Origin: Bacteroidia bacterium
GTDB taxonomy: Bacteria; Bacteroidota; Bacteroidia; UBA8524
Reading direction: 5' to 3'
Length of the DNA stretch: 64,000 bases
Assembly: GCA_037968475.1 (NCBI GenBank)
Contig: JBBKVO010000017.1
Span: 78,598-142,597, forward strand
The notes beneath the pieces are model-generated. The model did not search any database. It was not told the origin of the DNA and saw only the letters and a list, made by a program, of their open reading frames with translations. Each line of letters starts with the position of its first letter. The first letter of the stretch is position 1. The position numbers and the translations under genes are program-made. Shown here one piece after another: positions 5,934 through 64,000 of the stretch.

Positions 5934-6150
5934 GTTTTATAAAATTAATAGAGGCAAATGTATTGCAATAAATTTATCAAATTGTAAAATAGATATTTTT
6001 TTAAAGCTTTTTATTTGTTTTTAGAAAGAAAAAAAATAAATATATAAAAAATATGGATAAATGAGTGGGTGTTTTTAGTTAGTGATGTGTACATAGATAT
6101 AACTACCAAGGTTAATTTAATAAAAACAAAAGATAAATTTTTCAAATTCA

Positions 6151-6188
6151 TAAATCTAAACTATCCTCTAAAGAATAGTTTAGATTTA
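6151..6188 (-). terminator. Hairpin with a 14-bp perfect stem (taaatctaaactat...atagtttagattta), downstream of the minus-strand OMP gene.
   Basis: The inverted repeat was read directly. It sits in the AT-rich spacer between the OMP gene end (6233) and the giant adhesin start. Confidence 0.45.
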
Positions 6189-6232
6189 ACATGTAACCAC
6201 AAAATTGTTTTGGTTTATAAAAAATTTTGAAT

Positions 6233-6940
6233 TTAAAAATTATAGCCAATACCCACTGAAGGAATAATATTTCTAACCTTTATATATCCATCAAGTGAGG
6301 ATCGACTGGTATAATTGCCATTCGTATACTGAGTAAACAAAACATTTTCAAATGTTGGTTTAGCAAACATATAATCCAGCGAAGCTAAAAAGCTAAAGTT
6401 ATTACTAAAATTACTTTTAAGCTGAATACCTAATGTACCTGTTAAAGCACTAATGGCAGATGAAGCGGTAATAAACTTAAATGTATTTCCTCCACCTGAT
6501 AAGGTGGTTTGCAGTTCTCCAATACCATAGCTTAAATAGCCGATTTTTAAATGGCCACCAACCACAGTATTGCCCGACGAGTAAAAATTATATCCCCATG
6601 TTGCTGATATACCCAGCCCTGCATACCCCCCTCCATTTGTTGAAGATAAAAAACTGGCCGATTGCTTTTCTATATTTGCATCATACTCATCAGTATTAAA
6701 GCCATTGGTAAAAAGTGATAACTGGCCACCTATATACAATTTGTTAATTGTATGCAAAAAGTCGGCTTGCAAATAAATACCTGTGGTGGCATAACTTGCA
6801 TTGTTTGAATTGTCGGTTTGTGAGTATTGACCGATTGGTATGGCTGAACCCACCTGAAAATTGATGCTGTTTTTTAGCTCTTGGGCTGAGCTATTTAATG
6901 CGAAAAAAAATGCAAGTAAAATTGTTAATAGTGATTTCAT
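6233..6940 (-). CDS. Outer-membrane beta-barrel (porin-like) protein with a signal peptide.
   Basis: N-terminal MKSLLTILLAFFFALNSSAQ. The body has alternating Gly/aromatic-rich beta-strand character and ends in a C-terminal aromatic (..GIGYNF). An 8-bp gap separates it from the upstream gene. Confidence 0.55.
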   Translation of the reverse strand: MKSLLTILLAFFFALNSSAQELKNSINFQVGSAIPIGQYSQTDNSNNASYATTGIYLQADFLHTINKLYIGGQLSLFTNGFNTDEYDANIEKQSASFLSSTNGGGYAGLGISATWGYNFYSSGNTVVGGHLKIGYLSYGIGELQTTLSGGGNTFKFITASSAISALTGTLGIQLKSNFSNNFSFLASLDYMFAKPTFENVLFTQYTNGNYTSRSSLDGYIKVRNIIPSVGIGYNF

Positions 6941-6947
6941 AGGTTTA

Positions 6948-9608
6948 TTAATTTGTTTGTCTTATTTTATTAATTCTAAATATCCAACGTGCTACTCTAT
7001 TAGTTTTTCCATCATTTCTTCTCAAAAGATTATGACCTAAAATCCCCATTCCTTCAATATCAGCTGTAAAAGGGTGTTGAAGTAGTGTGCGGATGTATTG
7101 TTTTATTAGTACCCTGTTTTCTTGATTTTCAAACAACAGTAAAATAAAAAATAGTATCTTATTGTATAATGATATATAAGGCTCAACAAGATGTGTAGGG
7201 CTACGTTTAAATGTATATTCAGGTGCTTTTTGGCTATAATTTGGTTTTATTGTAGAACTGTTAAAATTTAGTGTCTGGTACAATATTGGTTCTGTTCTTT
7301 TTTCTTTTTTGTCAAAATCAATGGCAAAGTAGGCTAAAGCCAAAACGGCTATATCTTTTATTAATGGTTCGCTTGCATTCATCCACCTATACATGGTTTG
7401 TTCAATGCCTGTGAGTGGTCGGCTTGAATACCAAAACGGATATCTTTCACCATCAATAATGGTATATGCAGGCGCGTTCTCTAGCCCTTGTCTTTGATGC
7501 CTATATATAGGCGTAAAGCATTTTATTATTTGTTGCCTATCATCAACTGCTGAATAACTAAATAAAAATTTTACTAATGGTAATGCCGCTTCAGTATCAA
7601 TAGCTATAAGCTTGCTTATAATTGCATAAAATAATGCTGGGTTCACTCTATCTTTACCCAATACATATAGCTCTTTTATAGTTTCGCACAATTGCAAAAA
7701 ATTTTGCTCGTTATTAATAGGTAGCTTTATGTATACGTTTAATACTGTTTGTAGTAATAACCCCGAGCTATTGTTTTCTTGTAAACAAATATTTGCCCAG
7801 TTGTTAAGCCATTCTTCAACCTCATCAGTATAATTTTCGTATGCCTCTAATAATCCATTAACAATAAATTCGCTTCGCTTTTCATTAGTTATAAATTCTG
7901 GCGTAAATAGGGGACGTATTTGGTAAAAATGATTTAATAATAGTTTTGATACTAAAACTTTATAATGCTCCGCAGTCAAATCAATAGGCTTATCAAGTAT
8001 GTATTCCACAAGCTTTATTACTTCTGCCGACAATTGGTTAGGGGCTTCATCTTCTGTAATATATTGTAGGGCACGTATAACTACATTATACAAATACCGT
8101 TTTGCACGTGGGCTTATAACTCCGCTAGTATTACCCTCATCACCATCGTGCAGTATATCCTCAATTTGTTTTCCCGCCTCATCATTTTCAAGCCATCGCC
8201 ATATCAACTTATACAATTGCTCTTCTTTGCCAAGTGATTTCCAGCGCACAATAGCCTTTGCTACAATGCGTTGCAAGCTGTCGTCGTTTGTTGCTGCCAG
8301 CTTAAGTAACTTGCTCTCAACAGCGGGTAGATACTCTAAACCTATGTCGCTAAAAGTTTCAGCAATGGTTTCTCTTAGTACCTGCCTTTTATGGCGAGTG
8401 CTGTGTAGCTCTTGCTTCATGTAGCTTTTATAGCGTGATTGTTGGGCAGCAGTTTCTAATACTGGTATAGCCGCAGCTATATGCCTACGATGGGTTTGCC
8501 AAGCGCAATGCAAAATTTCTGCCCGTTGAAAGGGGAAGCGGCTTTTGATTAATGTTCCTTTACCCGTTTCTCCGTCAAATTTAAAAAAGCCTAAAAGAAA
8601 ATCTAAATCAACATAATCTAAAGCATATAACGATGAATCACGATAATGCCAAAACTCTTCTGTTATCCGCCTCAACACCTCAAAAAACTGGTCTTCGTAT
8701 ACGCCATCTAATAATGCCGCAGCAATAACCATTAATTTTTCTTTTTCAGTATTAATGTTTTTAAACCAACGTGCAACAAGTGTATCTGTTTTATCTGAAA
8801 AACTATTCAGCAACGTATTAAGTGCATCAGCCAAAATGGGCTGTGGCTCTGCGGATAGCAAATCAATAAAGAACCTTACCTGCTCGGGAGTTTGAAATGA
8901 TGTAGCTATTTGAGCTATTGTTTTATTACCCGATAGTGTGGCATTGGTATCAATTTTTTTAGGCTTATTTTCAAAAGTTAAATGATATTTAGTTACACTA
9001 AGCTCGTATGCAAGCACATTAGCAATAGCTTCTTGGCTATAAAGGTTAGTAGAGGGAATTTGAAACCAATATTTTTTTTCTTGATGTGCCTTAAGTTGCC
9101 ATGTTTTTAATTCCAAATCAGTAATTAAAATAATATAATGCTTTCCTCTTGCTGCTTGGCACAACTCATCAGCATCAAACCCAATATTTTTTGGCGCAAA
9201 TTCATTTAAAATAAAAACTGTTGTGTCTTGTTTTTCTTTGATAAAAGAAAATAGTTCTTTCGGTTTTTTGTCTCCGGCAATTTTCTCTAATGTCGATTTA
9301 GATTCAATATCTTGCTCTAACAAATAAGCCAAATGTCGTGCAAATGCATCTTTATCAAACCCGGTTCCACCTGCTAAAATGATAAGGTTATTTTCTGTTA
9401 ACTGCCCAAGTAATAATAGCGTGAATACGGGGCTAATATAATTTTCAGGCGAGTACGAAGCGGTGTTAACAGTAATCCACTCTGTATCATAATAGTTTTC
9501 ATTAATCTGATCCCCACCAATTGCATTTTGGGCATTAATATTAATATTTCCTTCTGCTACAAACCCCACATTATTTATATTGGTCTCACTTATGTTATCC
9601 ATTATCAA
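6948..9608 (-). CDS. Large (886 aa) hypothetical protein. It has an N-terminal Gly/Asn/Ile hexapeptide-like motif, a degenerate P-loop-like segment (LIILAGGTGFDKD ... VFILNEF) and a long alpha-helical repeat region.
   Basis: Long clean ORF that starts 7 bp after the stop of the TIR gene. The Walker-A-like motif has G-x-x-G-F-D-K-D instead of GxxxxGK[ST]. The remainder is helix-rich and matches no family I recognise. Confidence 0.6.
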   Translation of the reverse strand: MIMDNISETNINNVGFVAEGNININAQNAIGGDQINENYYDTEWITVNTASYSPENYISPVFTLLLLGQLTENNLIILAGGTGFDKDAFARHLAYLLEQDIESKSTLEKIAGDKKPKELFSFIKEKQDTTVFILNEFAPKNIGFDADELCQAARGKHYIILITDLELKTWQLKAHQEKKYWFQIPSTNLYSQEAIANVLAYELSVTKYHLTFENKPKKIDTNATLSGNKTIAQIATSFQTPEQVRFFIDLLSAEPQPILADALNTLLNSFSDKTDTLVARWFKNINTEKEKLMVIAAALLDGVYEDQFFEVLRRITEEFWHYRDSSLYALDYVDLDFLLGFFKFDGETGKGTLIKSRFPFQRAEILHCAWQTHRRHIAAAIPVLETAAQQSRYKSYMKQELHSTRHKRQVLRETIAETFSDIGLEYLPAVESKLLKLAATNDDSLQRIVAKAIVRWKSLGKEEQLYKLIWRWLENDEAGKQIEDILHDGDEGNTSGVISPRAKRYLYNVVIRALQYITEDEAPNQLSAEVIKLVEYILDKPIDLTAEHYKVLVSKLLLNHFYQIRPLFTPEFITNEKRSEFIVNGLLEAYENYTDEVEEWLNNWANICLQENNSSGLLLQTVLNVYIKLPINNEQNFLQLCETIKELYVLGKDRVNPALFYAIISKLIAIDTEAALPLVKFLFSYSAVDDRQQIIKCFTPIYRHQRQGLENAPAYTIIDGERYPFWYSSRPLTGIEQTMYRWMNASEPLIKDIAVLALAYFAIDFDKKEKRTEPILYQTLNFNSSTIKPNYSQKAPEYTFKRSPTHLVEPYISLYNKILFFILLLFENQENRVLIKQYIRTLLQHPFTADIEGMGILGHNLLRRNDGKTNRVARWIFRINKIRQTN

Positions 9609-9614
9609 TATTTT

Positions 9615-10184
9615 TTATTTCTTGTTAGTGATAATATCTCTGCCTGCTACGTTTTTGCCGGTAATATTTATGTCGCCACCTATTGATACTGTGCCTGCAT
9701 CAGTTATATTTACTGCTGGTATTTGAGAAGGTTGTGATGTTTTTTTTGTAGATTTTACTATTTTTGGCTTGCAAGCACTAACTATTTGGCGTACAGCTTT
9801 GTCTGTATCATCACTTAGCTTTATAGCAAAATGGTTTTTTTGTAAAGGGAAATTTATTTCTACATCCTCAAAAGGGATATTGAATAATACCGGAATGATA
9901 ATTTTTTTATGCTTTGTTTCTAGGGCTACAGCTGCATTAAACTCTGTGCGTGTCCAAACACTTTTTATATAATTTTGGCTAATAATGGCAATAAAATATC
10001 TGCTTCGTGGTATAGCTTGCTGCAATATCGCCTCTTCCATATCATCCCCCGCATTTAAGTCTGAGCCAGAATACCAAACAGAAAGACCCGCCTCGCGTAA
10101 CTTGGCATTTAGCTCATTGGCTATAGCTGCCTTATCTTTATATGCGTGCGAAAGAAAAATATCGCATTTTTTGTGTTTAGCCAT
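9615..10184 (-). CDS. TIR-domain protein (189 aa) with a C-terminal extension ending in the motif VSIGGDINITGKNVAGRDII.
   Basis: DIFLSHAYKDK...LREAGLSVWYSGSDLNAGDD...AIPRSRYFIAIISQNYIKSVWTRTEF matches the bacterial/plant TIR consensus (D[IV]F[IL]SH, G..V[FW]..., S.W...E[LF]). The glutamate in the S.W..E motif (candidate NADase catalytic Glu) is retained. Confidence 0.8.
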   Translation of the reverse strand: MAKHKKCDIFLSHAYKDKAAIANELNAKLREAGLSVWYSGSDLNAGDDMEEAILQQAIPRSRYFIAIISQNYIKSVWTRTEFNAAVALETKHKKIIIPVLFNIPFEDVEINFPLQKNHFAIKLSDDTDKAVRQIVSACKPKIVKSTKKTSQPSQIPAVNITDAGTVSIGGDINITGKNVAGRDIITNKK

Positions 10185-10205
10185 TTATTAATTTATTTAA
10201 AAAAA

Positions 10206-10229
10206 CCTTTCGGGAATACACCCGAAAGG
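10206..10229 (-). terminator. Intrinsic-terminator-like hairpin (cctttcggg/cccgaaagg) followed on the minus strand by a U7 run. It sits 5-20 nt upstream of the TIR start codon.
   Basis: Read directly: 9-bp GC-containing stem, 6-nt loop, then A7 on the plus strand (T7/U7 on the minus strand). Confidence 0.45.
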
Positions 10230-10404
10230 CGAGGTTTAGATGTGGCTACTCAGAGCGCGATATAGCCAACACCTAATGTTTTTATAACTTCTTTGCGTCA
10301 AGTTTACCATTGGGTTCTTTGATAGATTAATCTGTTTTCCGAATGGTGGTTTGTTCTTTCCGAATAAATGGAGGGTTGCTATGTTTCCTGTGGGTAGACA
10401 GTTT

Positions 10405-10668
10405 CTACCCTTTAATGATATTTATTGAATATTTGATGTTAGCACTCCCTCCCCCAAGATCAATCACAATATTCCAATTACCTTTATGTGGAACTGATAT
10501 TCTTGCAGGAAGTATTTCATAGAAGCCTCCATAATATTTACAACTTCTACCTGATTTATAATTTGAGTAATTAGTATCATCCATAAGTTTGATATTACAT
10601 TGATGTGTGCATTTAACTTCTACAATATCACCAATGTTTAAATATTCTCGTTTATGTAAGAAATTCAT
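10405..10668 (-). CDS. Small hypothetical protein (87 aa), DUF1883-like.
   Basis: ORF with the pattern IGDIVEVKC.H.CNI.LMDD.NY.NYK.GR...YYGG......ARISVP..G.W..VIDLGGG. This resembles my recollection of the DUF1883 small beta-rich family; the assignment is from memory only. Confidence 0.4.
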   Translation of the reverse strand: MNFLHKREYLNIGDIVEVKCTHQCNIKLMDDTNYSNYKSGRSCKYYGGFYEILPARISVPHKGNWNIVIDLGGGSANIKYSINIIKG

Positions 10669-10685
10669 GATAATTTTTATAGTTT

Positions 10686-11258
10686 CTAAATTTTACCAAG
10701 TTCTTTTAAACGCCAAAAACATTTTGCAGTAATCGCAATATCAATAGATGCATCATGTGCATCTTCAAATTCTTCTCCAAACAACGTATAATGAAGCTCC
10801 TGAAGTTTAGGCCATTTATAGCCTCCAAAACTTCCGGGAATTGCACAAAAACCTGTGGTACTCATCATAGTGCATACTTTGATTTTAGCAGGGATCACGT
10901 TGATCATTCCTTTTCGTATAAATTCAGCACCAACAATTTTTTCATCAAAACTCATATTATGAGCAACTAAGACTTTAGAATTATCAAGTTGATTATTGAA
11001 GTTTTGAAGAACTTCATACAGACTCTTGCCTTCTCTTCGGGCACGTTCAGTTGAAATTCCATGGATGTTAGTTGATTCAGCTGGAATCGAAAAACCTTCT
11101 GGTTTTATAATAAAATTCTCTTCAAGAAGTTTTGTTCCTGCATCATCGTATAAGAGATAGGCTAATTGCACCATACGTGGCCAATTATTAACATCAGTTA
11201 CTGGTGATTTCCAATTATTGGGTAAACCAGTCGTTTCGGTGTCAAAAAATAGATACAT
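10686..11258 (-). CDS. DEDD-family 3'-5' exonuclease (DnaQ/epsilon-like, standalone).
   Basis: Exo I FFDTETTGL, Exo II LVAHNMSFD and Exo III (Y-x3-D) HDASIDIAITAKCF are all present. Confidence 0.8.
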   Translation of the reverse strand: MYLFFDTETTGLPNNWKSPVTDVNNWPRMVQLAYLLYDDAGTKLLEENFIIKPEGFSIPAESTNIHGISTERARREGKSLYEVLQNFNNQLDNSKVLVAHNMSFDEKIVGAEFIRKGMINVIPAKIKVCTMMSTTGFCAIPGSFGGYKWPKLQELHYTLFGEEFEDAHDASIDIAITAKCFWRLKELGKI

Positions 11259-11277
11259 TTTATTTATTTTAATTAAA

Positions 11278-11715
11278 TCAATAACAAATTTTACAAGCCC
11301 TATAGCCTGAGTTTTGCGCTTGGGTTTTGGTTACATTACTGGTGCCAGCCTTGCATCGATTTAGCCCGTGGCAGTAGTGTGAGTGATATGCATAGGCACT
11401 TTTACTATTACAAATAATTACGGTGGTTTCCTTTGGGGGGGCTTGTTTTGCTGCACTTGGTTTTTGTGTGCTTAGATGCTCTTTGGCCACATAGCCCTTT
11501 AGAGTGTCGTAAACCGTAATATTTGCCCAATCACCCGTTTCAAAATTCACAGTAACCCCAGCCCCTTTGTTAAGAGTAGTTTTTATTGTGGCTGTTGTAT
11601 TGGGTTGGCTTCTAACGTTTAGTTTATCAGCAGTTACATAATGGGTTATTACTGCCTTTACTGTAAATGCTAAAAAAAATAATGAGCCAAAAAATATTAT
11701 TAGTTTCGTTTTCAT
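11278..11715 (-). CDS. Secreted SH3b-domain protein with a C-terminal Cys/His motif (YH..YCHGL..C...A...GY..CK.C).
   Basis: Signal peptide MKTKLIIFFGSLFFLAFTVKA. The bacterial SH3-like segment is LNVRSQPNTTATIKTTLNKGAGVTV...WANI. The Cys-rich tail is shared with the next gene. Confidence 0.55.
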   Translation of the reverse strand: MKTKLIIFFGSLFFLAFTVKAVITHYVTADKLNVRSQPNTTATIKTTLNKGAGVTVNFETGDWANITVYDTLKGYVAKEHLSTQKPSAAKQAPPKETTVIICNSKSAYAYHSHYCHGLNRCKAGTSNVTKTQAQNSGYRACKICY

Positions 11716-11722
11716 AGTAAAT

Positions 11723-12004
11723 TTATTTAGTTATGGTTGGTATTGGTGCATTGCAACGCTTGCAGGGCGTAAACCCTTTTTGTTTTGCAAGTGATAAGCT
11801 AAGCGGTGTTTTGCTGGATGCTAAAGCACCGCAGTTTGCTGTATGATATTTTTTACCTGTTTTGGTAATGTATACTTGCTGTTGAGTTTTAACCGAACTA
11901 GCCGTACACGAAGCTATTGATAGGGCAATGCTGCATATAGTAATAAGCCTTGCCACTTGTTTTTGCACTTTTGATGCGCTTGCTATTTGGTTTTGATAAA
12001 ACAT
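11723..12004 (-). CDS. Small secreted/lipoprotein-like protein (93 aa) with the same C-terminal motif (KKYH..NCGAL...A...GF.PCKRC).
   Basis: ORF in a 7-bp-spaced tandem with 11278..11715. Hydrophobic N-terminus. The C-terminal motif can be aligned to its neighbour. Confidence 0.5.
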   Translation of the reverse strand: MFYQNQIASASKVQKQVARLITICSIALSIASCTASSVKTQQQVYITKTGKKYHTANCGALASSKTPLSLSLAKQKGFTPCKRCNAPIPTITK

Positions 12005-12108
12005 TCTATTTTACTGAAATCAATAGCAAGTTCACTTCTTTGTATTTCAGCAGATAGTTTGTTTTCCTAAAGGGTTACTATTTTTTCCTAATAGACTTTT
12101 TTAATTTT

Positions 12109-13242
12109 CTAACGTATTTGCTGCAAAAACCAGTAGCTCCCTTTTTTTTCAAACACCAAGGTTTCTTGAGGTTTAAATCCCAAAAGGGTTACTGTTCGGT
12201 TTTGCCGGTGGTTTGAAGGCGAAAGTTTAAGATTTATTTCAGCGCACCTTAAAAATTGAGTATAAGCAATATCAATCTCACACAGTCCGTTACCTATTCT
12301 TTTACCCACAATTTCATATTGAACAGGCTCAATATTTATAAGGCTATACAAAAGGCTACTATCGTTTTCTTGTTTAAATATATAGGGGCGATATTGTAAT
12401 AAACCAAAAGGTGCTTCGGCTAATGAGGTATTACTAATTATTCCATTGCTTTTTAAACCTGTTAATGATTGTATATGCTCCATACCATTATAAAAATTAT
12501 AATGGTTTCTGTGTGATGTAATCGTGTGTTGGAAATATAGGCCTTGCTGTTTTTGATTTATAGCTTCAAGCGTGCTTAGCTTGCCGTTTTTTAATACTAA
12601 AACTTCTTGAAAATGGTTTTTAACAAGGGCATCCATTTCTCCTTTACGTTTTTCAACAACTTGATTTATTTCAGTTTTTGATGGCTGTAATGATTGCCTA
12701 TGTGATAGAAAAAGTGCTAGTAAATAAAAAAGCCCCAGCACTATAAATAAATTCCGTATAAATATTTTTTTCTTTTTTATAAAATGCAAACCAAATGCAC
12801 AGTTGTAGTAAACTGCTGGTTTTGGTTCAATTTTTTTAACAATTTCGCTAATTATTGTGTCAATATTAGTTTCTACTACTGCCCATCGATGAAGCAAATC
12901 AGGTTTCTCAGCAGTTACTTCCTCAATAGTTATGTTGTATAATATGGGTACAAATTTTTTGTTTTTTCTTTTCAGTTCTTCCAGTTCTACATGCGCCCAA
13001 TAACTATTATAGTTGTGGGTAATAAGTGCTATGCCTAATCTGTTGTTTTTTAGCCCTTCATAAATTCTATCGGCAATATTATCGCCGGGTTCAAATTCTT
13101 TTTTAGCATACCAAACCCTTAGCCCATGCTCGGTTAGCTTGTTGTATATTTCATTAACAAGCTCTCTGTCTTCTATAACATAAGAGATAAAAATATCGTG
13201 GGTTTTGGGTCCTTCAAACAACATATAGTATATATTGTTCAA
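12109..13242 (-). CDS. TIR-domain protein with a central transmembrane helix and a ~200-aa C-terminal domain of unknown function.
   Basis: The N-terminal HDIFISYVIEDRELVNEIYNKLTEHGLRVWYAKKEFEPGDNIADRI...GIALITHNYNSYWAHVELEEL is a TIR domain and retains Glu in the SxW..E motif. A strong hydrophobic segment follows (IFIRNLFIVLGLFYLLALFLS). The true start may be the internal M at MLFEGPK. Confidence 0.75.
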   Translation of the reverse strand: MNNIYYMLFEGPKTHDIFISYVIEDRELVNEIYNKLTEHGLRVWYAKKEFEPGDNIADRIYEGLKNNRLGIALITHNYNSYWAHVELEELKRKNKKFVPILYNITIEEVTAEKPDLLHRWAVVETNIDTIISEIVKKIEPKPAVYYNCAFGLHFIKKKKIFIRNLFIVLGLFYLLALFLSHRQSLQPSKTEINQVVEKRKGEMDALVKNHFQEVLVLKNGKLSTLEAINQKQQGLYFQHTITSHRNHYNFYNGMEHIQSLTGLKSNGIISNTSLAEAPFGLLQYRPYIFKQENDSSLLYSLINIEPVQYEIVGKRIGNGLCEIDIAYTQFLRCAEINLKLSPSNHRQNRTVTLLGFKPQETLVFEKKGSYWFLQQIR

Positions 13243-13314
13243 AAAGAATATTTATAAGAATAATTTAAGCAATATTATTTCCTAGGGGGTGGTTTTTTTT
13301 TCCAAAAAGATATT

Positions 13315-14064
13315 TTATATCAATGGAAGGTGTTTAAAAACATCTTCTTTAAAAGTATCTCCAACGGCAATTTCATAATCGCCCAGCACTAATACATTGC
13401 CTTTAACTGCATCAACATTGTTAATGTTTACCACGTGCGACCTATGGGCTCTTATAAGACTATCGTGATTGATTTTAATGTTTAATGCCCCCATACTAAT
13501 GCTTTGTGTAAGTTTGGTTTTATTTGTAAGGTATATATGGCAATATGCCCTATCGGCTTCAATAAATAGTATATCAGCTATATCATACTTTTTGTAAGTA
13601 TCATTGCTGTCTTTTAAAAATAACTTTCCTTTTCGCACTACGGCATTTGGATGCTCGGGCTCAATATCATCAATAGATATTTTTCTTTTTTCAGCACTAT
13701 TGTTAATGGCTGTGTGTATACTTACATGCAGTTGATTGGCCGAAAATGGTTTTATTAAATATGCCGCAGGGTTTGTTGCCAGTGCTTTTTGCAAGGTTTT
13801 GCTATCACTTAAGTTTGTAAGAAAAATGATAGGAAAATCATCAATAGCCTTTAGCATTATAGCGGTTTCAATGCCATTTTTTTTGCCTGCTATCATAATA
13901 TCTAAAAAAATCAAATCGGGCAGGTTATTTTTAACTGATTGCAAGGCACTATCGCAATTATCAACACAATCTGTAATTTCGTAGCCTAGTTTGATTAGCT
14001 GATTTGCCATGTCATCGGCAATAAGCTCTTCATCCTCAACAATTAATATTTTTATTGATGGCAT
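13315..14064 (-). CDS. Response regulator, LytTR family (CheY-like receiver plus LytTR DNA-binding domain).
   Basis: KILIVEDEELIADDM...DLIFLDIMIAGKKNG carries the receiver acidic pocket and phospho-Asp. C-terminal ADILFIEADRAYCHIYL...LIRAHRSHVVN is the LytTR signature. Confidence 0.85.
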   Translation of the reverse strand: MPSIKILIVEDEELIADDMANQLIKLGYEITDCVDNCDSALQSVKNNLPDLIFLDIMIAGKKNGIETAIMLKAIDDFPIIFLTNLSDSKTLQKALATNPAAYLIKPFSANQLHVSIHTAINNSAEKRKISIDDIEPEHPNAVVRKGKLFLKDSNDTYKKYDIADILFIEADRAYCHIYLTNKTKLTQSISMGALNIKINHDSLIRAHRSHVVNINNVDAVKGNVLVLGDYEIAVGDTFKEDVFKHLPLI

Positions 14065-14117
14065 TATGCTAATGATAATTTTTCTGTAAAATTAGCTTAT
14101 TTTTTTAACTTTATACA

Positions 14118-15974
14118 ATGAGACTAACCCTATTTGCTTGCCTTCTCCTGTTTTTTCACAACTTTGCTGCTGGGCAAAACAGTATTATTACTGATGCAAA
14201 AAGTCTTAGTGATTCAGCTATAAAATTGTTAGGAAATAATGAATATGATTCAGCCCTATCAATTATTAACAAGGCTATTGCAATTTCTCAAAAAAATAAT
14301 GACTCACTCCAAACAGCTAAATGTTTAAACAATATTGGGTTGATATATAGTAGCAAAGGCGATCCTGTAAAAAGTCTTTTTTACTACGAGCAATCGCTGA
14401 AGCTACTTAGGCAGCTTAATAATAAGGAGGATTTTCCTACAGCGCTTTTAAACATAGGTATTTCATACAAAGAACAAGGTATATACGATAGGGCGCTTAA
14501 AAATCTTTTTGAAGCGGTGGCTTTTTTTGAGTTGCGAGGCGAAGCCAAAAAACTATCGTCAGCTTATAATGCTATTGGAAATATTAATAGGATTGAAGGG
14601 AATTATAATTGGGCTTTAGAATACCACACAAAGGCGTTAAAATTGAGGCAAAGCATTAATTATACACAAGGTGTAGCAGCTTCGCTAAGCAGTATTGGGG
14701 TTGTATATAAAGAACTGGGTAAATACGATTCGGCACTATTTTATCTTGGAAAATCTTTGGCATCAATAGAGGTAGGCAAAACAAGGGATGATCACTATGC
14801 CAACACATTATCACACATTGCTGAAATATATGAGATTGAAGAAAGCTACCCAAATGCAAAGAAATATTTTGACAGTGCTTACGCTATTAGAAAGAAAAAT
14901 GATAGTAAAAAAGGAATAGCATATTCGTTATTTGAGTTAGGACGGTTGTATTACTCAACCAATGAGCATACAAAGGCTGAAACATATTTATTAAGAAGTA
15001 TTGATGAGGCTAATAATGTAAAGGCTTTTGATATTGTGCTAAATGCCTATGAAATTTTACGGAAGCTATATAAAAGCAAAAAAAACTACATAAAGGCTAT
15101 TTTGTATGATGATTTGTTTATAAAACTTAATATGCAATTGCTGGGCGAAGAGAAACAAAAATCGCTTACCCAAATGCAGATTAAGTACGAAACTGAAAAA
15201 AAGCAAGAAGAAATTGATAATCTAAATCAAGATAAGCAAACACGCGAAGCTATTTTACAAGCAAAGGAAGCACAACTTGAATCGAAACGAGTTCATAATC
15301 AAAACTTAGTAATTGTTATTGTGTCACTTACACTAATTTTAACATTAGTTTTAGTCTTATTTGTTCTTAGGCTTCGTTATGCAAAAAAACTTGACATTGT
15401 AATGCGTGAATTACACCACAGGGTGAAAAACAATTTTCAGGTATTGTTATCTCTTTTTAATCTTCAACTAGAGGATATAAATGATGAGGAAGCTAAAAAA
15501 GTTATTGCTAGTAACAGTAATCGGATTACGGCCATGATGCTGATACATAGAAAGTTGTATTTTGATAAAGAGATAACAACAGTAAAGGTGGCTGATTATA
15601 TACAAAACATAGTTGAGAACTTGCTTGTGGTTTATGGGCTAAAGAAACGGGGGATAGAAATAAAATACACAATTGATGATAAAATTAAAATTAGTGTTGA
15701 TAATGCCATTTCACTGGGTCTTTTAGTAAACGAATTAGTAACAAACTCTTTTAAGTATGCTTTTGATGATAGGAATAAAAAGCCCCTGCTTTTTATCGAG
15801 CTAACTAAAAATAAGAATAATATTTTACTAGTACAAGATAATTGTACAAATTCAACCGAAGTTATATTTAAAAATTCGTTTGGGTTGAAATTGGTAAATA
15901 CGCAAGTAAAACTTCTAAAAGGCAATTTGCAAAGAACAACTGATAATGGTATTAAATATACAATTGTTTTTTAG
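14118..15974 (+). CDS. Sensor histidine kinase with a periplasmic/N-terminal TPR repeat region, one TM helix, a HisKA_2-type H-box and a HATPase domain.
   Basis: Signal peptide, then multiple 34-aa TPR-like repeats (A..LNNIG.IY...G....SL.YYEQSL). TM helix LVIVIVSLTLILTLVLVLFVL, H-box HHRVKNNFQVLLSLFNLQ, and a C-terminal ATPase region. It is transcribed divergently from the LytTR regulator. Confidence 0.85.
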   Translation: MRLTLFACLLLFFHNFAAGQNSIITDAKSLSDSAIKLLGNNEYDSALSIINKAIAISQKNNDSLQTAKCLNNIGLIYSSKGDPVKSLFYYEQSLKLLRQLNNKEDFPTALLNIGISYKEQGIYDRALKNLFEAVAFFELRGEAKKLSSAYNAIGNINRIEGNYNWALEYHTKALKLRQSINYTQGVAASLSSIGVVYKELGKYDSALFYLGKSLASIEVGKTRDDHYANTLSHIAEIYEIEESYPNAKKYFDSAYAIRKKNDSKKGIAYSLFELGRLYYSTNEHTKAETYLLRSIDEANNVKAFDIVLNAYEILRKLYKSKKNYIKAILYDDLFIKLNMQLLGEEKQKSLTQMQIKYETEKKQEEIDNLNQDKQTREAILQAKEAQLESKRVHNQNLVIVIVSLTLILTLVLVLFVLRLRYAKKLDIVMRELHHRVKNNFQVLLSLFNLQLEDINDEEAKKVIASNSNRITAMMLIHRKLYFDKEITTVKVADYIQNIVENLLVVYGLKKRGIEIKYTIDDKIKISVDNAISLGLLVNELVTNSFKYAFDDRNKKPLLFIELTKNKNNILLVQDNCTNSTEVIFKNSFGLKLVNTQVKLLKGNLQRTTDNGIKYTIVF

Positions 15975-15981
15975 CAATAAA

Positions 15982-16009
15982 AAAGCCTTGCCATATACGG
16001 CAAGGCTTT
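15982..16009. terminator. Bidirectional hairpin (aaaagccttgcc-atatac-ggcaaggcttt) between convergent genes.
   Basis: An 11-bp inverted repeat flanked by A-run and T-run, read directly. Confidence 0.5.
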
Positions 16010-16032
16010 AAATTATTTCTTTTTATTAAAGA

Positions 16033-16425
16033 TTAATTTAGTGAAACATTAACAGTTTGCGGTGTGCCGCTTATTGTTATGGCTGTTGTTTTGGGTGAGT
16101 AGCCGGGGTAAGATACTTTTAAGTAATAACTACCATTACTTACTGAATTAAAGAAGTAGTGGCCTACACTGTTGGTGCCTATAATGGCTACTAAAGTGCC
16201 GCCTGAGGTTCTAATTTCAACACAGGCATGGTAAAGAGCCCCACCAGCCGAATCTGTTACTGCGCCGCTAAGCATGGGTTGCGGATCTTCGTTATCGCCC
16301 TCATCACAATAGGTTTCAGTGGCAGCTAAAGGAGCTGAGTCAATATTAGTTTTGGTATCAACAAGGCTGTTAAATGAACCTGACAACAGCAACAAAGGGA
16401 ATATAACTTCAATTACTTTTTTCAT
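16033..16425 (-). CDS. Small secreted protein with a carboxypeptidase-regulatory-like (CarbopepD_reg) beta-sandwich fold.
   Basis: Signal peptide. G.V.DS.GG.L..A.V.I...GG.....T...G.Y.F..V..G.Y.L.VS..GY pattern. Confidence 0.45.
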   Translation of the reverse strand: MKKVIEVIFPLLLLSGSFNSLVDTKTNIDSAPLAATETYCDEGDNEDPQPMLSGAVTDSAGGALYHACVEIRTSGGTLVAIIGTNSVGHYFFNSVSNGSYYLKVSYPGYSPKTTAITISGTPQTVNVSLN

Positions 16426-16940
16426 AACATTAAAAATTTAATTGTTTTGATTTCCCGACATGACACGCCTTTCCCAATACCACATGTTGCGGGTTATACA
16501 GTGGTTTAACTAGCTGAAATGTTTACAGCAAAAAGGCATGAAGGAGATAGGAGAATTCCCTGTTTTACTAAGCCTTTTACTACTCTCCCAAATAGTTAGG
16601 CTTAGTTTGCAGGATAGCACTTGCTAATTTTTTAACAACAATTAAATGGGGTTTTGCTAGTGGCTTTCGCCAAGGCCTTCCTGACCTTTGTATGCCATTT
16701 TTTATTGTTAATATTTAGCCGGTGCTGTTGTTTGGTTGCGCTACCAGTTAATTAACAATACAAAGGTGGGGCATATAATTAGGCTGTTTATACACGTTTC
16801 AGGTTAGTTCACACAAGGTTCGGATGGATTTCACGAGTTTTTCACGAGTTTGGGAAAAGCCTTTATCGTATATGGAAAATAGAAATGTCAATTAGGAAAT
16901 ATTTTTAATTAAACAAATACCTAAAGACTTCCTTTGATTT

Positions 16941-17708
16941 ATGGCATCAAATACATTACACGTATTAAAACTAATTGAGCTATTGGCTGAAGACCGTAAT
17001 CAGACTTTAGACTATGCAGGTTTTGGTGCTATGAGTAATGTGCTGGATGAGCCTGTATCTCAACGGTATTTAGATGATTTATACAGAGATACAAAACAAA
17101 AAATCTCAAAAGAGATATTCACTACACGAAAATCAAAATTATTTTTAGACAAAATAGCACAGTATTTAGGCTTCAAAAATTTTGATGAATTCTCTGCTAC
17201 GTGTAATAAGGAGTTTTCTGAAATAATAAAAGCGTGTATCGGGTATTGGTGGAGTTACGTTAGAGCAAACTCTGGCAATTATATCCTGAAAGCACCTGTG
17301 CGGATTTTTTTGGATGACAATAAGCAGAAAATAATGATGGAGTTAAGGGGAGCTGAAAGAACGTTTATAGGTGAGATTGTTGAAAAAGAGGGATGTATGA
17401 CAGGCTTTTTAAACTCTGGCACTGCTAAAAGACTTGGAGTGTGTTTTAAACTGGGTTTAAGCAAGCAAATTCAAGTTACTCAGGGTGTTTTTTGTGGAAT
17501 TTCTTCAACAGGGAACCCTATTGCAGGGAAAGAAATTTTAGTTCGTGAAGAAAGAATACCATTTGAAAATATGAGATGGGAAAAATTTCCCATCACTGAT
17601 GATAGAATTGACGAGAATATTCGCAACTATTTTACAGAATACAATAAAACCTGTATTCAGGTTAAAGATGTAAGCGGTTTTGACTTAGAGAGCCTAAACA
17701 GTATTTAA
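16941..17708 (+). CDS. Hypothetical protein (255 aa).
   Basis: ORF only; no family I recognise. Confidence 0.4.
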   Translation: MASNTLHVLKLIELLAEDRNQTLDYAGFGAMSNVLDEPVSQRYLDDLYRDTKQKISKEIFTTRKSKLFLDKIAQYLGFKNFDEFSATCNKEFSEIIKACIGYWWSYVRANSGNYILKAPVRIFLDDNKQKIMMELRGAERTFIGEIVEKEGCMTGFLNSGTAKRLGVCFKLGLSKQIQVTQGVFCGISSTGNPIAGKEILVREERIPFENMRWEKFPITDDRIDENIRNYFTEYNKTCIQVKDVSGFDLESLNSI

Positions 17709-17728
17709 TTATTAACACTTAACTTATT

Positions 17729-17944
17729 ATGAAAACCAAACTTGTTTTAGTAATGCTATTTGCTTTAGCTTTTAGCCTCAGTAATTGTTCAAAAGATGAT
17801 GCTCCTACTGCTTCAAATTCTGATTGCCATACTGACCAAAGCAAACGTAGAGGAGCAATGTGTAAAGATGGGTCAACAAGCAATTCAACTGGTTCAGGAG
17901 CTTGCTCTGGTCATGGAGGAGTTGATTATTGGTTGTGTAAGTAA
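17729..17944 (+). CDS. Small Cys-rich lipoprotein (DUF3761-like; C.DG..S.S..GACS.HGGV.YW).
   Basis: Lipoprotein signal (LSNCSK) and a C-terminal GACSGHGGVDYWLCK motif. Confidence 0.45.
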   Translation: MKTKLVLVMLFALAFSLSNCSKDDAPTASNSDCHTDQSKRRGAMCKDGSTSNSTGSGACSGHGGVDYWLCK

Positions 17945-63409: not shown

Positions 63410-64000
63410 TAGTTGGCAAAAATATTTTCTTCTATTACTACTGCTTCAAGGTAGTTTGGGCTTGTTTGCGCAAGACTGTGAATGGCTTGATTTGATTGGT
63501 GAAGAATCTAAGTCGACCGTATTTGGCTATGGAATTACTTCATATAAAGACGAGATTATAGCCATAGGAAAATTTCAGGACAGTGTGGAAATAAATAATA
63601 CTGTATACAAAGTTCAGGGAAAGTACAGTACAGCAGGTTATGTGATTAAATATAAGCCCGATAGCACAATTTTATGGTCTAAGTATTTCTATAGTACCAA
63701 TAATGGTAGGTCAAATTTGGAGTTTTTAGATGTAGAAACCGATGCAAACGGTAATATTTTTATTTCAGGTACTGTTAATGGAACAGCAGATTTTGGGAAC
63801 GGTGTAATCATTTCTACACCATCTGTTACATCTCATATTGAAAGTTTTATACTGAAACTTGATTCTAATGGAAAAGCTAAATGGGCAACTACAATACGCA
63901 CTGTTACCACAGGTAGTTTTCTTAATGATTTATCCATTACCGTAGATAACAATGGCGATGTAATAGCAGGGATAATGTTTACTAATGATATTACATTTAC
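63410..64000 (+). CDS. Partial secreted hypothetical protein (continues past the window end).
   Basis: ATG at 63410 and signal peptide MHSWQKYFLLLLLLQGSLGLFAQ; the ORF is open to position 64000. Confidence 0.4.

Follow-up and report, generated by a model that had tools for sequence, protein, structure and literature searches.

The TIR-TM-X gene, which codes for a TIR domain, a transmembrane (TM) helix and a C-terminal domain named X here, in our reading belongs to a regulon that is specific to Bacteroidota, has not been described before and carries two TIR genes. More than a single gene is concerned: the repeat in front of TIR-TM-X recurs ahead of the other TIR gene and of three or four additional transcription units, and we therefore speak of a regulon. 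The idea of an earlier note on this DNA, that a two-component system controls a TIR gene, is supported by the conserved linkage of the genes, by this repeat and by the retained catalytic residues, and we propose that an enzyme with the potential to kill the cell is probably turned on by a switch that senses the envelope. The whole explanation, namely a two-component-induced regulon in which TIR-TM-X is the most constant target, would cleave NAD+ and would serve in defence or conflict, is the one we favour, with moderate confidence. To our knowledge, the TIR effectors of the known bacterial systems compared below respond to triggers within the cell (nucleotides, nucleic acids or phage proteins), and bacterial immune systems are rarely placed under a classical sensor kinase and a DNA-binding regulator. 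Here a two-component system that faces the envelope is tied, in a conserved manner, to two TIR genes, which lets one ask whether bacteria arm NAD+-destroying enzymes upon signals outside the cell. Moreover, the defined operator sequence makes the regulon readable directly from Bacteroidota genome sequence, and the locus provides a confidently modelled new periplasmic domain that is exchangeable across several cytoplasmic outputs. Marivirga lumbricoides CGMCC 1.10832 is a cultivable carrier; the Fulvivirga matches are metagenome-assembled genomes.

Table 1. Features of the locus, with positions in the window
Feature	Position	Strand	Remarks
886-aa partner of soluble TIR	6948-9608	-	behind operator copy 10336-10361
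Soluble TIR protein, 189 aa	9615-10184	-	behind operator copy 10336-10361
Putative operator copy before first TIR gene	10336-10361	-	exact repeat match
Four-gene operon	10405-12004	-	gaps 7-19 nt
Putative operator copy before 93-aa gene	12063-12088	-	equivalent site after TIR-TM-X in most relatives
TIR-TM-X gene	12109-13224	-	371 aa; TIR_2 E 1.7e-19; ATG shared by homologues
Domain X (predicted periplasmic)	12112-12699	-	part of TIR-TM-X
TM helix	about 12709-12765	-	part of TIR-TM-X
TIR domain	about 12820-13212	-	part of TIR-TM-X
Promoter-like box TTCTTTTTG	13240-13248	-	42-43 nt past proximal repeat, ~16 nt before ATG
Putative operator, GGAAA-N16-GGAAA	13278-13303	-	upstream of TIR-TM-X; extended form TTTGGAAA...CTAGGAAA
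LytTR-family response regulator, 249 aa	13315-14064	-	Response_reg E 5e-19, LytTR E 3e-12
Sensor histidine kinase	14118-15974	+	TPR + HisKA_2 + weak HATPase_c
Small secreted CarboxypepD_reg-like protein, 130 aa	16033-16425	-	signal peptide; Pfam on homologues
Conserved structured leader, ~320 nt	16426-16764	-	before CarboxypepD_reg-like gene
Three in-phase GGAAA repeats (two overlapping putative operators)	16853-16899	+	upstream of 255-aa gene
255-aa cytoplasmic protein	16941-17708	+	divergent, conserved in cluster
71-aa DUF3761-like Cys-rich lipoprotein	17729-17944	+	downstream of 255-aa gene

The consensus site of LytTR regulators consists of 9-bp repeats with a 12-bp spacer, hence a 21-bp period (PMC2766830; PMC4227749). 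LytTR direct repeats were sought in 13243-13314, where the earlier note had thought that they might lie, and the direct repeat TTCGGAAA-N12-TTCGGAAA, with a period of 21 bp, was found there at a conserved position before TIR-TM-X. This element is over-represented. Its exact form, GGAAA-N16-GGAAA, occurs five times in the window (the whole 64-kb stretch of DNA that was analysed) against 0.15 expected, and all five copies are intergenic, lie between 10.3 and 16.9 kb and precede TIR-TM-X, the operon of the 93-aa gene, the genes of the other TIR protein and its 886-aa partner, and the gene for the 255-aa protein. A repeat-like match at 63567, with a 20-bp period and apparently within coding sequence, was set aside as chance. 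Across 16 related loci, 57 repeat matches were counted, as compared with 6.0 +/- 2.8 in shuffles. The repeat lies 49-58 nt upstream of the ATG, and the same element is found at this distance in 14 relatives; the 21-bp period is exact in seven of the eight close relatives, and a clear repeat before the gene is missing in L011 and L012. Two direct repeats of ~9 bp, ~12 bp apart and conserved upstream of the promoter, correspond to the sequence pattern of LytTR promoters, and the repeat is a putative site of the LytTR regulator; it could also be bound by some other protein that is conserved in the cluster, such as the 255-aa one.

A box T(T/C)nTTTG stands at the same distance from the repeat (42-43 nt to the TTTG) in eight relatives and resembles the Bacteroidota -7 element ..TTTG, which suggests that the TTCTTTTTG box acts as the promoter. 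A scan for sigma-70 promoters and terminators, which is unsuited to Bacteroidota promoters, gave promoter matches that were not above chance. Between the operator copy of the first TIR gene and its ATG at 10184, a terminator-like hairpin (10206-10229) is followed by a T-run. As for the triple repeat before the 255-aa gene, its equivalent is present in L001, L003, L004, L005 and L012.

The linkage to the two-component genes is as described in the earlier note, with a LytTR regulator directly upstream and a TPR kinase divergently encoded, since Response_reg and LytTR matches on the one hand, and TPR and HisKA_2 matches on the other hand, were obtained. This arrangement is conserved: the LytTR regulator lies immediately upstream in 18 of 19 distinct homologues, the TPR-HisKA_2 kinase is also present in all 15 homologues with enough flank, and the 255-aa gene is found wherever the flank suffices. 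The linkage persists to 22-25% identity and is seen in two different gene orders, which speaks for selection rather than for a single segment inherited from a common ancestor. The genes of kinase and regulator overlap in the Cytophagales clade, where a gene for an acidic lipoprotein of 60-70 aa directly precedes them. In L016 the regulator is absent from the 690 bp of available sequence upstream of the TIR-TM-X relative, and several genes separate the X protein from the kinase in L040 and L041. The kinase itself consists, in this order, of a signal-like N-terminal segment, ~360 aa of TPR repeats, a TM helix (392-423), HisKA_2 and HATPase_c. Its TPR domain is presumably periplasmic, a placement that rests on the signal-like N-terminus, which is below the hydropathy threshold.

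The reading frame that had been reported at 12109-13242 on the minus strand is present, with a different start. Translation almost certainly starts with the ATG at 13224, for a protein of 371 aa, because the identical database protein P0001 and all homologues begin there; the conserved promoter-like box ends with the TTG at 13242-13240. The gap to the regulator gene, which had been given as 72 bp, is therefore 90 bp. The N-terminal TIR domain stood up well, the Pfam TIR_2 (PF13676) score being over the curated cut-off, as did the catalytic glutamate: W76-A-H-V-E80 aligns (phmmer) to W-T-N-Y-E of AbTIR, which we take to be the WxxxE motif W204/E208. The E208A substitution inactivates AbTir, and the function of the WxxxE motif is documented (PMC10641520). 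E80 is found in 107 of 111 TIR domains of the family (96%) and W76 in 105 of 111, and the other TIR_2 motifs are, like WxxxE, near-invariant across these 111 members. The closest solved relatives of the domain are AbTIR, PdTIR and TcpB. By its sequence it is thus of the NAD-cleaving type represented by AbTir and PdTIR, from which we infer the NADase activity itself. The single strong TM helix is also borne out, at about aa 154-172, with KKKK before it. TIR-TM-X lacks a signal peptide and has a single TM helix, which is flanked by positive charges on its N side, and it is therefore predicted that the TIR domain is cytoplasmic and that X is periplasmic. The features of the TIR-TM-X locus (reading frame, motif, helix and neighbours) are not due to chance. 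The gene product had been called a TIR effector: the TIR domain and the catalytic motif are there, and the role of effector is one that it may play.

The C-terminal domain, of ~200 aa, had been left unassigned, and indeed Pfam, NCBIfam and PADLOC gave no match. The 196 aa of domain X matched nothing in Pfam even at E<=1, nothing in NCBIfam, no relative in the PDB in a sequence profile search and nothing among the viral models of BFVD; it is not a housekeeping family with a match in Pfam (E<=1), PDB or BFVD. A fold search with the whole TIR-TM-X protein returned TIR and flavodoxin-like matches only and was uninformative for the C-terminus. When domain X was modelled alone, from an input of 60 sequences, AlphaFold2 gave a pLDDT of 96.5. 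We take X to be a previously undescribed domain that is predicted to face outwards; it might be related in structure to the NTF2, cystatin or VirB8-like periplasmic domains. Domain X is carried by 143 clusters. Three polar residues, R326, E354 and W365, are invariant, each in 132 of 136 sequences. Nevertheless X evolves faster than the TIR domain, the mean pairwise identity being 22% for X against 37% for TIR. Its partners are a TIR domain, a TIR domain with three TM helices, or three TM helices with a CarboxypepD_reg-like domain, and it also occurs behind an N-domain of the 255-aa type and behind a short cytoplasmic stub (P0034 and others). Every other architecture likewise puts X outside the cytoplasm. 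Weak Pfam matches indicate a direct fusion of a CarboxypepD_reg-like domain to X in P0030, P0076 and P0091; BLAST gave no match between the CarboxypepD_reg-like protein of the locus and P0091. The variants P0088 and P0030 are still within the same kinase/regulator cassette. The contig of P0034 is too short to judge cassette membership. X is an exchangeable module that is combined with several N-terminal parts, as one would expect if it were a sensor or bound a partner.

According to the scenario that we propose, the probably periplasmic TPR domain of the kinase would perceive a cue from the envelope or from outside the cell, and the kinase would phosphorylate the LytTR regulator. A regulator dimer would then bind the TTCGGAAA repeats 21 bp apart, centred ~50-70 bp upstream of weak ..TTTG promoters, and switch on TIR-TM-X, the soluble TIR with its 886-aa partner and the 255-aa protein, together with small Cys-rich periplasmic and cytoplasmic proteins and nucleases (DEDDh here, HNH in other genomes). 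TIR-TM-X would span the inner membrane in the N-in orientation, so that the TIR domain lies in the cytoplasm and X in the periplasm. X may bind a ligand or partner, the best candidate being the co-encoded CarboxypepD_reg-like protein, and such binding would lead to the clustering of TIR-TM-X, clustering being the event that activates TIR NADases. The active TIR would cleave NAD+ through the WxxxE glutamate, with NAD+ depletion and/or a cyclic ADP-ribose-type signal as a result. Most likely, the regulon would serve as an inducible response in conflict or defence, with an arrest of growth. The second TIR with a STAND-like partner, the HNH insertion, the variable cargo and the ICE-like and Cas9 contexts lend the locus the flavour of a conflict system. 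Against this explanation, the locus is found on the chromosome, in synteny across several genomes and between housekeeping genes, and many members of the regulon are small, secreted and rich in Cys, a make-up that known anti-phage systems do not typically have. The IMG/VR search gave TIR-only relatives and no full-length relative, which says nothing for or against defence; a phage origin was rejected on the same TIR-only relatives.

The two-component system might do no more than prime a TIR-TM-X that is itself a true transmembrane TIR receptor, X detecting an extracellular or envelope event and clustering triggering the cytoplasmic NADase. We consider this possible, and put it forward tentatively; the cue may be a phage (its attachment or damage from injection), a fragment of the cell wall or a protein from a competitor. 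If true, it would be a bacterial counterpart of the logic of Toll-like receptors, with an unrelated ectodomain of new fold. It seems unlikely that TIR-TM-X is instead a signal input, where X and the CarboxypepD_reg-like protein would form a co-sensor with the TPR domain of the kinase, in the manner of accessory membrane proteins of other two-component systems, with the TIR domain tuning the signalling or producing a second messenger. The gene adjoins the kinase/regulator pair, yet the X protein of L040 and L041 is away from the kinase. Likewise, the fusion of X to a CarboxypepD_reg-like domain in some proteins, the short cytoplasmic stub that is all some X proteins have, and the predicted extracytoplasmic position of X, TPR domain and CarboxypepD_reg-like protein alike would suit a co-sensor, whereas the conservation of the catalytic glutamate speaks against one, and a promoter of its own, of inducible type and with an operator, fits a target, although positive feedback is possible.

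Quite unlikely, in our opinion, is a peptide- or protein-based circuit for cell-cell signalling or competition, comparable to Agr, Com, Blp or Pln, in which the Cys-rich secreted proteins would be signals or bacteriocin-like products and the TIR proteins would serve immunity, self-killing or development rather than anti-phage defence. Polytopic peptide-sensing kinases are classed HPK10, and the kinase of the locus is not of this class but a TPR-HisKA_2 protein. Moreover, no ABC exporter or peptide-processing gene was found among the called neighbours. The operator precedes many small secreted proteins, as such a circuit would have it, but not the unit of secreted protein and kinase in the Cytophagales clade. 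The small acidic lipoprotein gene directly before the kinase and regulator genes of this clade speaks for such a circuit, as does the classical role of LytTR regulators in the control of circuits of this kind (PMC2766830). Finally, the TIR domain might be a non-enzymatic scaffold, as in animal TLR adaptors, TIR-TM-X being a structural or signalling component of the membrane without NADase activity. Several TIR domains do serve as scaffolds, and the enzymatic reading is here drawn from sequence; however, the near-invariance of WxxxE and of the other TIR_2 motifs, and the fact that AbTIR, the nearest solved relative with activity checked, is an active NADase, make this very improbable.

A known defence system was rejected as an explanation: PADLOC gave TIR-domain matches only, no partner genes were found and no system model fits; the candidate PDC-S66 was matched at model positions 147-276 of 282 only, which is the TIR part. 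Thoeris was rejected because only ThsB-model TIR matches and no ThsA were obtained with PADLOC and Pfam over nine or ten proteins (6233-15974), and the genes of 16033-17944 showed no Pfam or NCBIfam match to a ThsA-type partner. A TIR effector of CBASS or Pycsar was rejected as well, neither the protein nor its neighbours having a CD-NTase, cyclase, SAVED, STING or cNMP-binding domain. ThsB of Thoeris, TIR-SAVED and TIR-STING of CBASS, PycTIR of Pycsar, and SPARTA likewise have a TIR with catalytic glutamate and are effectors that require assembly, and anti-phage TIR systems share the variable, conflict-like neighbourhood; in contrast, TIR-TM-X is without a ThsA, CD-NTase, cyclase, SAVED, STING, cNMP-binding or Argonaute partner, its sensor-like domain is predicted to be extracytoplasmic and its control would be transcriptional, via the kinase/regulator pair. 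AbTir, PdTIR and TcpB (BtpA) have the WxxxE motif in common with TIR-TM-X. These are soluble proteins whose TIR is C-terminal and preceded by a different part, whereas in TIR-TM-X an N-terminal TIR is followed by a TM helix and a new, predicted periplasmic domain, and the gene lies within a proposed two-component regulon. With Toll-like and IL-1 receptors, the protein appears to share the logic of an extracytoplasmic domain, a single TM helix and a cytoplasmic TIR, but with opposite polarity (N-in, type II, TIR at the N-terminus), an unrelated ectodomain without LRR or Ig, and a TIR of the enzymatic bacterial type; the likeness is an analogy, homology being claimed for the TIR domain alone.

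The regulatory side recalls AgrCA, ComDE, BlpHR and SilAB, with which the locus shares a LytTR regulator, paired direct repeats of 21-bp period upstream of activated promoters and a compact multi-operon regulon with small secreted products. It differs from them in phylum, in its TPR-HisKA_2 kinase class, in the new repeat TTCGGAAA and in its putative targets, which include TIR proteins and nucleases. In Detocs, immunity involves two-component phosphotransfer and the kinase carries TPR repeats (bioRxiv 10.1101/2023.01.24.525353). The Detocs receiver carries the effector itself, a PNP ATP nucleosidase, and acts post-translationally, whereas here the regulator is a DNA-binding LytTR protein with presumably transcriptional output. 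PADLOC on the kinase, the regulator and their neighbours gave no match named as a Detocs component, and we found no description of this TIR/LytTR two-component system in the literature.

The 886-aa protein has a weak nSTAND3 match (E 0.078), and its homologue in L040 (948 aa, E 2e-98) is directly downstream of the regulator. The four-gene operon encodes a 93-aa lipoprotein (KYH..C..C), a 145-aa SH3b protein with the same motif, a DEDDh exonuclease and a DUF1883 protein, and its homologues lie downstream of TIR-TM-X in L008, L009, L017 and others. In L008 and L017, the same promoter is followed by an inserted HNH gene, the downstream cargo varies among loci, and many small secreted proteins carry the operator. 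L003 is in an ICE-like context and L041 adjoins Cas9. The 255-aa protein has no relative in Pfam, NCBIfam or the PDB. Over its first ~90 aa it shares homology with the N-terminal part of the N-dom-TM-X proteins (hhalign 94.9%, E 4.7e-8), as revealed by profile-profile comparison only, pairwise BLAST against P0088 and P0108 being insignificant. The 71-aa lipoprotein gene is probably co-transcribed with it.

Upstream of the CarboxypepD_reg-like gene, the structured leader includes a promoter-like TTTGTATTGTTAATTAAC at 16747-16764 and a GGGAAA-N14-GGGAAA element at 16450-16475. An Rfam scan of 9-20 kb gave sub-threshold, terminator-like matches only, the leader being without Rfam match. RNAalifold on MAFFT alignments of the leader found two short helices only, because variable inserts break the alignment. 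The MFE z-score of the leader is -4.1, and it contains a covarying helix, UGGGAGA/UCUCCCA.

The earlier note had started the TIR-TM-X gene at 13242, where the ORF list begins the frame with a TTG (12109-13242, minus strand, 377 aa). This start has to be moved, since a conserved TTCTTTTTG box ends in that TTG, the database protein identical to the product has 371 aa, and every homologue aligns from the Met encoded by the ATG at 13224. On these grounds we place the gene at 12109-13224. In Pfam, the protein matched TIR_2 (E 1.7e-19) and TIR (E 5.9e-7), with no match over its C-terminal half, and the NCBIfam and PADLOC matches (retron-TIR, ThsB, PDC-S66 and SAVED-TIR) were confined to the TIR part. 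Hydropathy agreed with the single transmembrane helix first read after the TIR domain: it gave one helix only, at aa 154-172, with an equivalent in four homologues and, in all these proteins, a Lys/Arg cluster before it. Because there is only this helix and the N-terminus has no signal peptide, topology rules lead us to infer that the TIR domain is cytoplasmic and the C-terminal 196 aa (domain X) extracytoplasmic. The data support this TIR-TM-X architecture.

Within the AbTir/PdTIR group, the TIR domain is an unremarkable member. AbTIR, PdTIR, TcpB/BtpA and another bacterial TIR matched at E 1e-12 to 1e-9 in a phmmer comparison with PDB sequences, and W-TNY-E of AbTIR was aligned with W76-AHV-E80. 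By this alignment, W76 and E80 are the WxxxE motif, equivalent to AbTIR W204 and E208. The E208A substitution eliminates NADase activity in AbTir, where W204 is important for making cADPR (PMC10641520). The catalytic Glu, already noticed as retained, is kept in 107 of the 111 family members carrying a TIR domain, and W76 in 105. The domain thus has the requirements of an active NADase, and such activity is predicted.

Word-indexed searching among 5.8 billion proteins brought up only four non-identical full-length relatives (35-38% identity). A profile of X alone matched 143 proteins among 1.84 billion cluster representatives, 67 of them at E<1e-10, nearly all 360-390 aa long with the domain at about 180-375; the majority of relatives are metagenome-assembled. 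Of 133 scanned, 108 had TIR_2 and none had a Pfam family on the C-terminus. X therefore stays without an assignable family, as the earlier note had it, in Pfam, NCBIfam and PADLOC. AlphaFold2 (60 sequences) modelled it confidently (pLDDT 96.5, pTM 0.90), predicting a pair of helices and then a long antiparallel sheet with about nine strands, and no close solved or viral counterpart to this fold was found. R326, E354 and W365 each occur in 132 of 136 sequences, and N297, N240 and R193 in 110-118; outside the conserved residues X is more variable than the TIR domain (mean pairwise identity 22% vs 37%, lower for X in 96% of pairs). The family also includes a short stub-TM-X, a TIR-3TM-X, a 3TM-(CarboxypepD_reg-like)-X and a 470-620-aa form, whose N-terminal 90 aa or so show homology with the N-terminal part of the 255-aa protein encoded in the window (hhalign probability 94.9%, E 4.7e-8; hmmsearch E 2.9e-7). 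In every architecture X is predicted to be extracytoplasmic. Both the CarboxypepD_reg-like domain and the 255-aa-type N-domain, encoded beside TIR-TM-X in the window, are thus fused to X elsewhere, and such fusions are independent evidence that the three genes function together.

The linkage to the LytTR regulator and kinase, first seen in the window, recurs in other genomes. Scanning a single genome for each species gave 11 full-length TIR-TM-X loci, all assigned to Bacteroidota by their label or content (Bacteroidia MAGs, Fulvivirga, Marivirga lumbricoides, Flammeovirgaceae, Cytophagales); one carries the label Burkholderiales. When window proteins were compared with locus ORFs by BLAST, the regulator lay directly upstream of TIR-TM-X in 10 of 11 loci, and the kinase and 255-aa gene were found wherever the flank sufficed; in the exception, L016, TIR-TM-X is flanked by TIR genes on either side and preceded by just 690 bp of sequence. 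All four close homologues share one order: 255-aa gene (opposite strand), CarboxypepD_reg-like gene, kinase (opposite strand), regulator, TIR-TM-X and small genes. In a Cytophagales clade (L012-L015, L018) the kinase, regulator and TIR-TM-X are on one strand, with overlapping kinase and regulator genes. The distant proteins P0006, P0060 and P0110 have, as elsewhere, an upstream LytTR regulator or its C-terminal fragment, and the X-only variants P0088 and P0030 lie a few genes downstream of a CarboxypepD_reg/kinase/LytTR cassette. The data support an association that, judged from gene order, appears to have been selected.

A direct repeat of the LytTR type, as sought between regulator and TIR-TM-X, is present. 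In eight close relatives this spacer holds two GGAAA exactly 21 bp apart (20-21 in one), with a T(T/C)nTTTG box 42-43 nt past the pair and the ATG about 15-25 nt beyond; we take such boxes to be putative promoters from their resemblance to the Bacteroidota -7 element. The 64-kb window contains five exact copies of GGAAA-N16-GGAAA where 0.15 would be expected (0 of 100 shuffles reached five), all of them intergenic and within the TIR-TM-X/regulator locus, and a 20-bp-period variant precedes the CarboxypepD_reg-like gene. In 16 related loci a relaxed pattern gave 57 matches; dinucleotide shuffles of them gave 6.0 +/- 2.8 and never more than 14. In 12 loci the operator lies 49-58 nt ahead of the start of TIR-TM-X. 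It also precedes the gene after TIR-TM-X, the 255-aa gene and many small genes; the related loci L046 and L047 likewise carry it. The consensus of 27 sites is TT(C/A)GGAAA-N12-TT(C/A/G)GGAAA. The data thus support a repeat that is conserved, over-represented and correctly spaced, and whose distance to the predicted start is fixed. Dimers of LytTR regulators bind 9-bp direct repeats with 12-bp spacing upstream of activated promoters (PMC2766830; PMC4227749), a period that the window repeat matches exactly, and both regulator and site type are ordinary LytTR features. We consider it likely that the repeat belongs to the LytTR regulator; the 255-aa protein is the alternative binder. Since the 53-bp kinase-regulator spacer has no operator, the sensor pair is probably not auto-induced.

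Operators, genes and other elements of the TIR-TM-X locus (window positions)
Feature	Position	Strand	Remark
Operator	13278-13303	-	before TIR-TM-X
Operator	12063-12088	-	before 93-aa operon
Operator	10336-10361	-	before first TIR gene
Operator, two overlapping copies	16853-16899	+	before 255-aa gene
255-aa protein and DUF3761-like lipoprotein	16941-17708 (255-aa gene)	+	regulon member
Secreted CarboxypepD_reg-like protein	16033-16425	-	regulon member
TIR-TM-X	12109-13224	-	regulon member
Operon: KYH..C..C lipoprotein, SH3b protein with same motif, DEDDh exonuclease, DUF1883			regulon member
Soluble TIR (189 aa) and 886-aa partner	9615-10184; 6948-9608	-	regulon member
Tail of 189-aa TIR	9615-9720	-	..NITDAGTVSIGGDINITGKNVAGRDII..
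N-terminus of 886-aa protein	9480-9608	-	..NININAQNAIGGDQIN..
Leader	16426-16764	-	CarboxypepD_reg-like gene
Palindrome GTTAATTAAC	16747-16756	-	perfect, 10 bp
Terminator-like hairpin	10199-10229	-	CCTTTCGGG-TGTATT-CCCGAAAGG, then seven T's

What stays constant across loci is the kinase, the regulator, the 255-aa-type domain and an X protein of some kind; the cargo varies. In L040, a 948-aa homologue of the 886-aa protein (E 2e-98) directly follows the regulator and is preceded by a protein with a 255-aa-type N-domain and a 189-aa-TIR-like C-terminal tail. In L008:7645-7960 and L017:7640-7950, the operator/promoter is separated from TIR-TM-X by an inserted gene for an HNH endonuclease of 103 aa (Pfam HNH, 22.1 bits vs cut-off 21.4). 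Further operator-bearing genes encode 66-68-aa Cys/His proteins, YjzC-like 51-aa proteins, Excalibur-like Cys-rich lipoproteins and DUF6232-like membrane proteins.

We propose that the phosphorylated regulator would induce TIR-TM-X, that clustering via X would activate it, that its TIR domain would act as an NADase, and that its role would lie in conflict or defence. In favour of defence are the presence of two TIR genes, the STAND-like partner, the nucleases, the variability of the cargo and the mobile elements or CRISPR found nearby in some loci. This reading is weakened because no signature of a known system was found, the setting in the chromosome is stable and small secreted proteins are numerous, and the locus may instead be a signalling or competition circuit. 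Likewise, TIR-TM-X may serve as a co-sensor, or its TIR domain as a scaffold. For a defence role, the nearest precedent of two-component logic in immunity is Detocs (bioRxiv 10.1101/2023.01.24.525353), which acts post-translationally and carries the effector on its receiver protein. Judged against Pfam, PADLOC, NCBIfam, PDB and the literature open to searching, novelty lies in X, in the N-in arrangement of TIR, TM helix and ectodomain, in the TTCGGAAA operator and in setting TIR proteins under a sensor kinase paired with a DNA-binding regulator.

Several other observations concern the cargo and its surroundings. The C-terminal tail of the 189-aa TIR resembles the N-terminus of the 886-aa protein and the tails of N-domain proteins in L040:3160-6873 (before the 886-aa homologue) and L041:3255-4136 (after the regulator); it looks like a paired adaptor motif joining effector to large partner. 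The Cys/His-rich 66-68-aa family (M(A)xYYVNxxAQxxGxHEVHKxGCxxMP....NCxxA...A......DGCxxCxxECH) is operator-linked in both clades (L003:12204-12410, L009, L010, L011, L015, L018), with no signal peptide and no Pfam match. In L004:10295-13313, 1.2 kb downstream of TIR-TM-X, lies an NAD salvage operon (NrtR-like Nudix regulator, PRPP synthetase, NAMPT), at which no operator was seen and which the close relative L001 lacks; found in L004 only, it may be coincidence or relevant to recovery after NAD+ loss. The whole L003 locus has ICE-like surroundings, with a serine recombinase and genes of the TraG/VirD4-like type, and a type II CRISPR-Cas9 locus directly adjoins the cluster in L041:8656-14501. 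Between the window (12109-17708) and its closest relative, L005, protein identity drops steadily along the locus (255-aa 94%, CarboxypepD_reg-like 78%, regulator 69%, kinase 57-60%, TIR-TM-X 38-39%) and the genes past TIR-TM-X are wholly different, as if the cargo end of the cluster had been recombined or replaced; between L001 and L004 identity is uniform (71-84%).

A conserved leader of about 320 nt, starting after a promoter-like TTTGTATTGTTAATTAAC, precedes the CarboxypepD_reg-like gene and folds better than shuffles (z -4.1 in the window, -2.2 in L001). Its hairpins covary between loci (GGUC..GGCC and GGC-GAAA-GCC vs GGAUC..GAUCC and GACG-AAA-CGUC), and the helix UGGGAGA/UCUCCCA is compensated elsewhere as UGAGAGA/UCUCUCA, GUGGGAG/CUCCCAC and GUGAGAG/CUCUCAC. 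The leader has no Rfam match; it is possibly a new cis-regulatory RNA. Directly past the TTTG box of its promoter, the palindrome, kept or nearly so (GTTGTTCAAC, GTTAATTGAC) at equivalent sites in L001, L003, L004 and L005, resembles the operator of a dimeric repressor; a candidate binder is the 255-aa protein, whose gene is divergent. In the Cytophagales clade, a comparable leader precedes the gene of a 60-70-aa acidic, Pro/Gly-rich lipoprotein, which has its own strong terminator, lies between leader and kinase gene (about 350-550 nt upstream of the latter) and holds the position of the CarboxypepD_reg-like gene in the window clade; this lipoprotein is a candidate secreted signal or co-sensor. 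The strong terminator-like hairpin between operator and ATG (10184) of the 189-aa TIR may either yield a short RNA or attenuate read-through into the TIR/886-aa operon. Finally, only two listed ORFs of at least 100 aa fall wholly within the first 6.2 kb of the window (1-6200), and a very long ORF probably extends past the window start.
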